Below are positions 25,101 to 27,558 of a stretch of DNA of 64,000 nt, in pieces. The first letter of the stretch is position 1, and every line of letters starts with the position of its first letter. This stretch comes from Protoeuglena noctilucae (lineage: Eukaryota). The position numbers and the translations under genes were made by a program. The notes beneath the pieces were generated by a model. It was given only the letters and a program-made list of their open reading frames with translations. It did no database searches and was not told the origin of the DNA. The DNA lies in contig OY253678.1 of NCBI GenBank assembly GCA_958009085.1, positions 930,001 through 994,000 on the forward strand. Reading direction: 5' to 3'.

Positions 25101-27558
25101 CTACCCCCCATCTCTATCTCATCTGCATCTCTATCTCTCACCCGTCAGCCCCCGCACATGCGGCCCCGTGTCCTCCACCGTGTCCCCCGAGCTGTTGACG
25201 TAGTTGCGGAGGGGGTCGGGGCGAGAGAGAGGGATGAGCTCGCGGTCGTCCACGCGGATCACCGCCATGTTCTGGGAGAATGAAAGGGAGTTGAGGTGTG
25301 TGATTGTTGCATTTGGATAGAGAGGGAGTGAGTGAGGGAGTTACGGTATGCAACTACAAGTGACCAACCCCCTCGCCTGCAATGCTGACAGCCACGCCAA
25401 CACTCCACCACCTTCGTTACCCGCCCATATCTCACCTGCAGGTCCACCCTCACTTCCAATCCCTCCACCGGCACCGCGTACCCATCATCGCACATCTAGA
25501 CACATCTAGCCATCACCCATTCCCCTATCCATTCCCGTGTTATCACATTTCATCTGCAGGTCCACCCCAACCATACACCCACTCCAATCCACCCCTTCTC
25601 CCACATCAGAACTCACCTGCAGGTCCACTCTCACTTCCAGTCCCTCCACGGGCACCGCGTAACCATTGTCGCACAGCTCCGAGTCCTCCTGGGCGTCCGT
25701 GCGTGGCCCCCCCATCGTGCGCACGAAGATGAGGGCGCGTGCCAGTCGCATGGAGGGGCCGTCGGCCTCGCTGAAGTAGCCGACGCACCTGGGGGGGGGT
25801 GGTTGGTTGATGGGTGGGTGATGTTGGGTGAGGGTGGGTGATGGAGTGGGTGGGTGAGAATGGGGTGATGGTGGGGATGGGTCTGGGGTGACGATTGGCA
25901 ACGATCCACCATCACCAGGTCCATCTCTCATCACCCGATGTGTACCACCATGGAGTTACCGTCAATACATGCATCCTACCCACTCCCACTCACTCCGTGG
26001 GTGGTGTGTGGGTGAGGGTGGGGCGAGGGTGGGGCGAGGGTGGGGTGGTGGGTGAGGATGGGTGATGGGGTGTGTGGGTGAGAATGGGGTGATGGTGGGG
26101 ATGGGTCTGGGGTGACGATTGGCAACGATCCACCATCACCAGGTCCATCTCTCATCACCCGCTGTGCACCACCATGGAGTTACCGTCAATACATGCATCC
26201 TACCCACTCCCACTCACCAAGGATCCACCATCACGAGGTCCATCTCTGTGACGCCCCTCCGTGCCATGGCGTGGATGAACCGCTTGTCCTCCTTAACGAC
26301 CCTCTCGGCCTCCTCATATTCAAACGCATCCAGCGATGGCTGCACGTCCTTGATGTTCGTAGACATGAGCACCGTCGCCTCGGCTGCCTTGGACCGGGAC
26401 GTGCGCCCCGCCTGGCGCACCGTCAGGCGCACGATCCACTCCGTCGTCATGTTGCTCTCTGGGAGGGTGGAGGGGTCGGTGATGATTAGCGATGGAATTG
26501 AGATTGAGCATGACCCACTCTGTCATCATGTCGCTCTAGGTCAGTAATTGCCTTGTGCCAGTGTTACTCACTCACACCCACTCACCCGTGTCGTAGGTCA
26601 GTGCGCGTGCCCTGCGTTCGACGGGCATCGGCCGCGGCGGCAGGGCCTGCCCCGGCTCAGGGAGGAGAGGGATGAGGCTCGGGTGGGGCTCGAGCAGTCC
26701 CACTTCGATGAAGCGGACCGACGTCGAGTTGCGGAGGTCCTTCCTGCGAAGAGGGGGAGCTTGGGAAGACATCGGGGGTGTGGGGTAAGGGCAAGAGGGC
26801 TGAGCTATGGGGGTGCAATGGGTGGGACGAGGCGTGGGGTGAGATGAGAGGGATAAGATTGGGACAAGCTTGGATGCGCATGCCATTCCGCACCCGTAGC
26901 GCTCGCGGATGGCCTGGACGGCGGCGGATATCTCCTCGGGCCGCAGGGAGTCGAGCGGGTGCTGGAACAGCGTGGCGCGCAGACCCTGGGGCTGGCGGGG
27001 GAAGGCGGCATCGGGAGCCACCGAGGATCCTGGACGCACGCCGCCCGAGCCCCCGCTGGTGGGCGCGCCGGGCGCGCTGACGGGCGTGATCACTGCGGGA
27101 AGGAGAGGGCGCGGGGATGCCGTCGCGAGGCGCCCGGTGCGGCCGGGGGCACGCAACTGTGGGCAAACACCGCACCTTCGGCGACGCTGGCGGAGCGGCC
27201 CTCTGCGCCCCCGGGGGCGTTGGTGGGCAGGGGAGTCGGTCCCTGGTGGAAGACGGGACGAGGAAGCCCGCCATCCTCGCCAGGCGCACCTGCGGGGGCA
27301 CCGAAGTCGGGCGACTGTTGCGCGGCGCGCCCGGAGCCGGTGGCCCACGAAACCGTCGCGGTCGGAGAGGTGCAGCGCAACTTCGTCGAAAAATGCAGCC
27401 GAGACTGCGCAGCGCTGCCGGGAGCCTCGGGAAACGGCCCGCACGCCTGCACCCTGCACCGTGCTCCCCGCAGCGTCTTGCGCGCGCGCGGGGGGACGGC
27501 AGGAGCCGCACGCCGGTGCATGCGCTCCATCCGCTACGCACACTCGTGCCGGAAGCAT
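22122..27558 (-). CDS. Copper-containing amine oxidase (TPQ-dependent); start approximate
   Basis: [57 protein letters not shown] (TPQ motif N-Y-E), IHQH copper ligands, [22 protein letters not shown]. Confidence 0.95.
23368..23524. repeat. (AAT)n microsatellite, about 42 units, in an amine oxidase intron
   Basis: Pure AAT array 23379-~23505, preceded by an A-run and (TTA)3, followed by (AAAT)n. Confidence 0.97.
25851..26217. repeat. ~143-bp direct duplication inside one amine oxidase intron
   Basis: 25851-25993 and 26075-26217 are nearly identical (GGTGAGAATGGGGTGATGG...CATCCTACCCACTCCCACTCAC). Confidence 0.92.

Follow-up and report, generated by a model that had tools for sequence, protein, structure and literature searches.

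An intronic copy of an exon end in a copper amine oxidase gene of Protoeuglena noctilucae and its mainly silent differences from the exon

The amine oxidase gene and the copied exon end

The stretch analysed here, hereafter called the window, comprises 64,000 nucleotides (nt) of Protoeuglena noctilucae (contig OY253678.1, positions 930,001 to 994,000 of the forward strand) and is a GC-rich eukaryotic DNA (GC 58-71%). On its minus strand, at about 22,500-27,300, lies a many-intron copper amine oxidase gene with a dozen introns, one of which contains a close copy of the end of the exon preceding it; we call such a copy an echo. The membership of the gene in the copper amine oxidase family is based on Pfam and on homologues: the exon at 24607-24870 scores 103 bits against Cu_amine_oxid (cut-off 27), and a protein search returned 2386 homologues at E<=0.001. 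Pelagomonas was rejected as the source of the window, since it has 0.45 introns per gene (PMC9481584) and the amine oxidase gene a dozen. The source exon of the echo, whose translation begins CVGYF, scores 19.3 bits by itself against Cu_amine_oxidN3, under the cut-off of 22.6. Its reading frame is set by the amine oxidase homology (Pfam and homologues) together with RNA joints carried by metatranscriptome contigs. The features of the locus are the following.

25617..25788, minus strand: source exon of the copper amine oxidase; 3' end given by RNA joints, start placed from the AG at 25790-25789 and the open frame
25617..25673, minus strand: real 57-nt exon end, TGC GAC AAT ... CTG CAG, with gtgagt next; putative template of the echo
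25272..25616, minus strand: GT..AG intron of 345 nt holding the echo and the short third copy; RNA joint 25271->25617
25142..25271, minus strand: next exon; RNA joints 25271->25617 and 24872->25142
25436..25492, minus strand: the echo, in which the exon end is repeated over 57 nt; six differences, five silent and one changing Asn to Asp
25431..25435, minus strand: intact, unused decoy 5' splice site GTGAG behind the echo, read from the sequence; the RNA contigs use the donor at 25616
25506..25508, minus strand: TAG in the reading frame of the exon, 14 nt before the echo, when the exon frame is read on into the intron
25554..25567, minus strand: short third copy of the exon end, 14 nt, GGGTGGACCTGCAG, then atgaaa; part of a three-copy 24-nt repeat family
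25490..25509, minus strand: tandem micro-duplication of 10 nt, ctagatgtgt / ctagatgtgc, at the upstream edge of the echo, read from the sequence

The echo lies 181 nt downstream of the exon end. A repeat search recovers the two copies over 72 nt at 88% identity with a spacing of 181, and a BLAST comparison of the window with itself aligns them over 64 nt at 90.6% (E=5e-17); the likeness is therefore not due to chance. An earlier sequence-only reading had described six differing sites between exon and echo, five of them silent, with gtga after both copies. Codon-by-codon comparison over the 57 nt confirmed this description, the sixth difference being the replacement of Asn by Asp. Of these six differences, one would be silent in one of the wrong frames and none in the other. 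Extending the match from the splice junction with a +1/-1 score adds 5 nt (25497-25493; AGCTG versus AGATG) and with them a seventh, non-silent difference (Leu to Met), by which the pair becomes 5 silent to 2 non-silent. GTGAG directly follows the exon end and the echo alike. In the short third copy (25567-25554) the donor site is degenerate or lost, and this copy has the AGG state in common with the long echo.

Splicing and coding status of the echo

The splicing of this intron was followed in contigs of three metatranscriptome runs from one study, which were placed on 23520-43519 together with contigs of one DNA run; 15 of the 48 joints of this interval were examined. Public marine metagenomes and metatranscriptomes contain the stretch, part of it being present in 14 of the 24 listed runs, from 4 studies. 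At the joint 25271->25617, 345 nt are left out between ends that read CT..AC on the plus strand and GT..AG on the minus strand. This joint is carried by one contig in each of the three RNA runs (X8, X9 and X10) and by none in the DNA run (X5). The echo therefore lies wholly within the removed intron, as far as contigs can tell, which would also be compatible with a rare isoform including it. A contig of the DNA run covering 24889-25879 is identical to the window, echo included; the echo is therefore unchanged in an environmental population. Over 24195-25879 as a whole, the environmental DNA contigs differ from the window at 0 letters.

The echo is also out of register with the exon, from which it is offset by 124 nt (1 mod 3), and the TAG listed above precedes it in the exon frame. 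Judged from the sequence, the echo would thus not be readable as a continuation of the exon. Its one replacement in the 57 nt falls on a residue that appears invariant: the position is N in 109 of the 109 homologues carrying the ..N.YA.P.EG motif, a count drawn from 120 listed homologues, 11 of which lacked a match to the motif pattern. Tandemly duplicated exons can serve as mutually exclusive or cassette exons, and the echo resembles them in being an exon-like copy with its own splice signal beside the original. It differs in consisting of the last third of the exon only, in being skipped in the transcripts seen and in having lost the invariant residue. Neither inclusion in mature RNA nor conservation of the copy at the protein level, both expected of a cassette exon, was found: the echo is skipped in one contig per RNA run (3/3), and the invariant Asn is replaced. 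The sequence-only reading had considered that the echo is or was translated and had pointed to RNA-seq and proteomics as the places to look for it. The metatranscriptome contigs of all three runs skip it, and the idea finds no support: splicing removes the copy, which lies in another frame than the exon, has a stop before it and has lost an invariant Asn.

As for the choice of the donor site, a 13-nt pair of 85% complementarity (25268-25280/25596-25608) joins the intron start, just past the real donor, to the acceptor region. Such pairing could favour the outer donor, although it is probably due to chance, as is probably the other short inverted repeat found, the CTGCAG palindrome. No Rfam match was obtained in 22000-28000.

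Silent and non-silent differences between exons and echoes

We then asked whether the excess of silent differences in the amine oxidase pair is peculiar to it, and pooled 32 exon/echo comparisons at 26 exon ends within the 64 kb. The extent of each comparison was given by the +1/-1 extension from the junction or, for two copies of sequence from inside an exon, by the BLAST block. Low-complexity repeats, purely intronic or intergenic repeats and coding repeats were excluded (for example 1958/2006, 2175/2403, 3352/3436, 13127/13215 and 21783/21846, and further 43297/43331, 44751/44850, 47408/47458, 56872/56923/56972 and 63808/63866). The short third copy, a second identical copy at 25899 and an echo of the 29345 junction that was found later were left out of the pool too. 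The frame is given by RNA joints or contig edges at three exon ends (23547, 24872 and 25617).

Of the 188 silent sites in the pooled comparisons 47 differ, and of the 589 non-silent sites 37, that is, a proportion of differing silent sites (pS) of 0.25, a proportion of differing non-silent sites (pN) of 0.063 and a pN/pS of 0.25. By codon position 1, 2 and 3 the differences number 23, 14 and 47. The counts become 42:35 without the amine oxidase pair and 43:37 when changes shared by sister echoes are counted once, and the silent share is 0.56, or 0.54 with shared changes counted once. Heterogeneity was absent among the 28 comparisons having differences (G-test by simulation, P=0.34).

For one constrained and one free copy, the silent share expected over the nulls ranges from 0.39 to 0.48. 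Uniform mutation gives 0.39 (P=0.0012 for the observed counts, or 0.0052 counting shared changes once). A simulation including transition bias, more mutable G/C sites, detection and trimming gives about 0.40, and placing the observed kinds of change on matched bases gives 0.43-0.48 (P=0.014-0.17). Whether detection and trimming are included or left out, the simulated share stays at about 0.40; detection bias does not raise it and was rejected as the source of the silent excess. The pooling of exon/echo pairs had been put forward earlier as a test against the plain case of one constrained and one neutral copy. With a pN/pS of 0.25 and homogeneous comparisons, the outcome roughly agrees with the plain case, and a modest silent excess is left over.

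The amine oxidase pair itself looks exceptional under one null only. When all changes are thrown at random on the echo, the probability of at least five silent differences out of six is 0.0045. This null leaves out the lineage of the exon, which adds differences at silent sites only. Under two-lineage nulls the probability rises to 0.04-0.09, and at the pooled observed share of 0.56 it is 0.18; the pair therefore belongs to the upper tail of the ordinary distribution. The expectation that a neutral copy should gather mostly non-silent changes thus makes the pair surprising against the echo-only null, and this part of the sequence-only reading stands, but the surprise fades against the two-lineage nulls. 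The further claim that a process beyond neutral decay is needed finds no support in this pair (P=0.04-0.18 over the two-lineage nulls and the pooled share). More generally, a silent bias between an exon and a non-coding copy of it is no proof of translation, because the exon contributes silent differences only.

The direction of the changes bears on which of the two lineages changed. On the coding strand of the 14 RNA-supported introns (23713-36608), the composition is asymmetric, with 38% G and 22% C in the 5' half and 44% C and 23% G in the 3' half. In the amine oxidase pair, all 6 changes from exon to echo lead to G or T. Among the echoes on the 5' side of introns, 29 of 40 changes lead to G or T (20 of them to G), and among those on the 3' side 30 of 44 lead to C or T. 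Such an asymmetry between the two types of echo is expected if much of the change took place on the echo, drifting to the local intron composition. In an Mre11 intron with two echoes, A and B, a hand count gives 6 differences between the exon and A, 8 between the exon and B and 12 between A and B; most of the change therefore lies on the echo lineages. The exon part of the repeat units is about 0.5-0.8 times as diverged as their alignable intron part, where about 0.6 is expected. The silent differences are nearly even in polarity, with G/C in the exon and A/T in the echo 20 times and the reverse 16 times. From these sequences, silent change seems to proceed about equally fast in the exon and echo lineages. 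Some exons carry rare codons where their echoes keep common ones: TTA, CAA and CTC against CTG, CAG and CTG (41233/41325, at 41386), AAA and GCA against AAG and GCG at 4528, and ATA against ATC at 23547. In a usage table of 629 codons, TTA occurs 0 times, AAA accounts for 1 of 19 and ATA for 2 of 19. These rare exon codons fit mutation pressure from G/C to A/T on the exon as well as any push to diverge.

We therefore consider it probable, at roughly 0.7, that the echo is a decaying, non-coding product of local duplication and that only the real exon is under selection. A local duplication would have placed a copy of the terminal ~60 nt of the exon, 5' splice site included, in the intron next to it. 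With the outer, original donor still in use, that copy would leave the transcript along with the intron and could decay freely. Selection at the protein level would confine the changes of the exon to silent sites, and the differences between the two copies would be made up of silent exon changes and unconstrained echo changes. The latter would drift to the G/T-rich composition of 5' intron halves and often strike C at third codon positions; together with the silent changes of the exon, this drift would bring the silent share near one half. What we infer here is the duplication event itself and the way in which the six changes are split between the two lineages.

Several points weigh against this reading. 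The pairs were picked by eye from lists of local repeats, and at 23 of the 26 exon ends the frame rests on open frames, on the G+C content of third codon positions (GC3) and on GT/AG signals. The pooled silent share of 0.54-0.56 is above every null that we built, and a small real excess of silent differences is possible. Individual pairs point the same way: 14902/15013 is silent at 5 of its 5 differences, and 41233/41325 has 4 silent differences in its first 41 nt, where the exon uses TTA and CAA, both of them rare. An origin of the echo by a simple 181-nt tandem duplication is unsupported, since the 109-nt spacer of the amine oxidase pair matches neither flank (z -0.3 and 1.6). Finally, as regards an outgroup to polarise the changes, the nearest protein relative is 74% identical, and a scan of JGI metagenome contigs for relatives gave 599 pattern matches, of which 0 were confirmed.

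The residual excess invites a broader idea, which we think unlikely: replacement sites of junction copies would change less than those of a free copy, rare conversion from echo to exon would expose their mutations to selection in a very large population, and the duplications may come from repair tied to splicing or transcription. A narrower explanation of the same kind, which strikes us as decidedly unlikely, is that occasional gene conversion keeps the echo in register and that, in a very large population, replacement mutations of the echo are weakly selected against since they can be copied into the exon, which would leave the echo partly coding-like. The excess of the pooled silent share over the 0.39-0.48 expected and the existence of all-silent pairs such as 14902/15013 speak for it. 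So do the echo-only changes in families with several echoes, which by a hand count are about 9 silent and 15-16 non-silent, with a pN/pS of about 0.6 against the 0.75 or so expected. However, the silent excess is slight and varies with the null chosen, and the ratio for echo-only changes departs from expectation by no more than noise. The amine oxidase pair shows no patch of identity marking a conversion tract, its longest identical runs being of 17 nt or less and its differences evenly spread, and among the echoes there are stops, indels and the replacement of an invariant residue. Weak selection linked to conversion could nevertheless explain the residual silent excess.

We find it very doubtful that the exon is itself pushed to differ, silent changes being favoured either for lowering homology or for helping the spliceosome to tell the junction from the decoy. 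Several exons do hold rare codons ending in A or T where the echo keeps the common one (41386, 4528 and 23547), but the overall symmetry of the silent polarity (20 versus 16) fits equal mutation pressure, the amine oxidase exon keeps the common GAC and CTG, and a deletion between the repeats would restore the gene, so that homology carries no evident cost. Gene conversion and an exon driven to diverge had both been offered by the sequence-only reading; neither is needed for the amine oxidase pair, and both keep a low weight.

It is highly improbable that the echo was templated from a diverged allele, homeologue or paralogue, although such a template would give mainly silent differences from birth without selection on the copy. 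It would require a silent divergence of about 36% (5/14 sites), yet over 24195-25879 the environmental DNA contigs match the window letter for letter. The 90% protein cluster of the open reading frame of the neighbouring exon has 1 member on 8 contigs, with the next relative at 74% identity, and none of the 599 pattern matches in JGI metagenome contigs proved to be a relative. The direction of change moreover follows intron composition, and the earlier suggestion of a diverged allele is accordingly without support. Translation of the echo as a 60-nt in-frame cassette (AG 25497-25496, ATG..CAG 25495-25436, GT 25435-25434), adding 20 residues that repeat the preceding strand, is scarcely credible despite a stop-free length that is a multiple of three, AG and GT flanks and five silent differences out of six, since the RNA contigs skip it in 3/3 runs, no pyrimidine tract precedes the AG, the invariant Asn is replaced and other echoes have no such flanks or contain stops.

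Local copies of splice junctions in the window and comparable systems

The amine oxidase echo is one of many. Comparison of the window with itself reveals dozens of local direct repeats, 50-240 nt apart, and most of those that are not of low complexity are copies of an exon end with its donor placed downstream, or of an acceptor with its exon start placed upstream, into the intron. The copies comprise 11-62 nt of exon plus the splice site and lie at the same intron end as the original. Both strands carry them, as do genes without relation to one another; in Pfam, two of these genes match Mre11 (66.7 bits) and a C-5 DNA methylase (27.5 bits). An unbiased sample was provided by the 14 introns with displayed RNA joints, that is, 28 junctions. 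At three of these junctions an echo scores higher than the 99th percentile of 364 mismatched controls, against 0.28 expected, so that about 1 in 9 junctions carries an echo. The exon-end echo at 29139-29345 (minus strand), which is outside the pooled count, scores 14 against a control 99th percentile of 11.

The arrangement of the copies is not uniform. Plain tandem arrays of 60-120-nt units including the junction are found at 41233/41325, at 42394/42497, in an Mre11 intron (period 119) and at 10331/10418. Of the 30 pairs tested, about 9-10 have abutting copies or a spacer that matches a flank at z>2.8, as at 41233, 42394, 16671 and 10331. In about 20 of the 30, including the amine oxidase pair and the young pair 5783/5848 (33 nt, 100% identical), the spacer matches neither flank. 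Templates for the spacers of young pairs were sought in the window and gave matches of 10-14 nt only, at chance level; the matches of 14 and 12 nt obtained for the amine oxidase spacer correspond to the short third copy. Copies bearing such filler possibly originated by break-repair duplication with filler, or else the intron was reworked later. Decay is apparent in other echoes: the copy at 43607-43631 has acquired a stop (GAG to TAG), and those at 16151-16192 and 17757-17804 have indels of 1 nt.

Some of the repeats are more elaborate. In the amine oxidase intron 26217-25789 (minus strand; window 25791-26217), a whole intron of about 200 nt, from gtgagt on, is present twice in head-to-tail order (203 nt, identity 91-96%), and each unit holds a 30-nt echo of the preceding exon end 26247-26218. 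An Mre11 intron within 14665-15015 (minus strand) contains an echo of the upstream exon end at 14929-14905 (5/5 silent) and another of the acceptor and downstream exon start at 14781-14741; the two together therefore form a nested 'mini-intron' with exon stubs. Also in the Mre11 gene, 16664-16972 (minus strand) is a three-unit tandem array with a period of ~119 nt, whose unit consists of the acceptor and the first 48-54 nt of the exon and of which only the last unit is the real exon start. In another GC-rich amine oxidase intron, a (TAA/ATT)n microsatellite of ~170 nt at 23340-23520 separates the real exon end 23547 from its echo at 23312.

Among known processes, the closest to the echo is tandem genomic duplication. 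Passages of PMC3443670, whose reference list names Gao & Lynch 2009 and Hellsten et al. 2011, describe tandem genomic (internal gene) duplications across an exon-intron boundary after which the outer splice sites are used. The likeness to what those passages describe lies in a local, direct copy that includes a splice site, in the use of the outer sites and in an extra copy that is intronic and leaves the protein unaltered. In the amine oxidase pair, the copies are close and in direct orientation (72 nt, 88%, spacing 181), and the splice site is duplicated (GTGAG twice) with the outer one in use (RNA 25617-25271), but the units do not abut, the 109-nt spacer being unrelated to either flank. 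The case also differs from the one in those passages in that an existing intron was lengthened and no new one created, and in that the spacer is unduplicated in about 20 of 30 pairs.

A second comparison is with the short direct repeats at intron borders that are ascribed to double-strand-break repair or insertion (PMC11782384), with which the papers on intron gain in Daphnia are grouped here. In both cases direct repeats stand beside splice junctions and enclose unrelated filler. Those repeats measure 4-30 bp, one at each intron end, whereas the echoes comprise 11-62 nt plus a splice site, with both copies at one end. Introner elements are known from marine algae (PMC9860276; Huff et al. 2016, cited in PMC9481584), and a marine alga with many changing introns is common to that case and this one. 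Unlike introners, the repeats in the window are local. Self-BLAST gives 21 hits, of which 20 are local and the exception is an inverted 46-nt match (50968/52106), ~1.1 kb apart; it detects no dispersed family within the 64 kb, and no terminal repeats were seen there. An origin of the intron sequence from introners or transposons was excluded on this basis, with 20 of the 21 hits local in the 64 kb searched. No description of exon-end copies in introns as a genome-wide feature of a marine alga was found in searches of open-access full text.

The presence of many local exon-end copies in one genome amounts to a natural experiment on the neutral substitution spectrum of introns. The echoes show introns lengthening by duplications that span a junction, and they could serve to measure how well the spliceosome ignores intact decoy sites. 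Should the silent excess hold true genome-wide, it would point to gene conversion or selection on non-coding copies.

Three further observations concern the interval covered by environmental contigs. The RNA joint 36003-36127 has AG..GC ends in place of GT..AG and may be a GC-AG intron, given a 2-nt ambiguity in its placement. CACCC-type low-complexity intron repeats at 42196-42862 reach ~224x DNA-metagenome depth, against ~14x elsewhere, with many chimeric joints, and are probably shared with many loci or organisms. Environmental contigs, DNA and RNA alike, depart from the window in one part of 23520-43519 only, namely at 25 listed sites in 33700-34514, a part overlapping an internal repeat at 33063-33613 that has diverged to about 63% identity.

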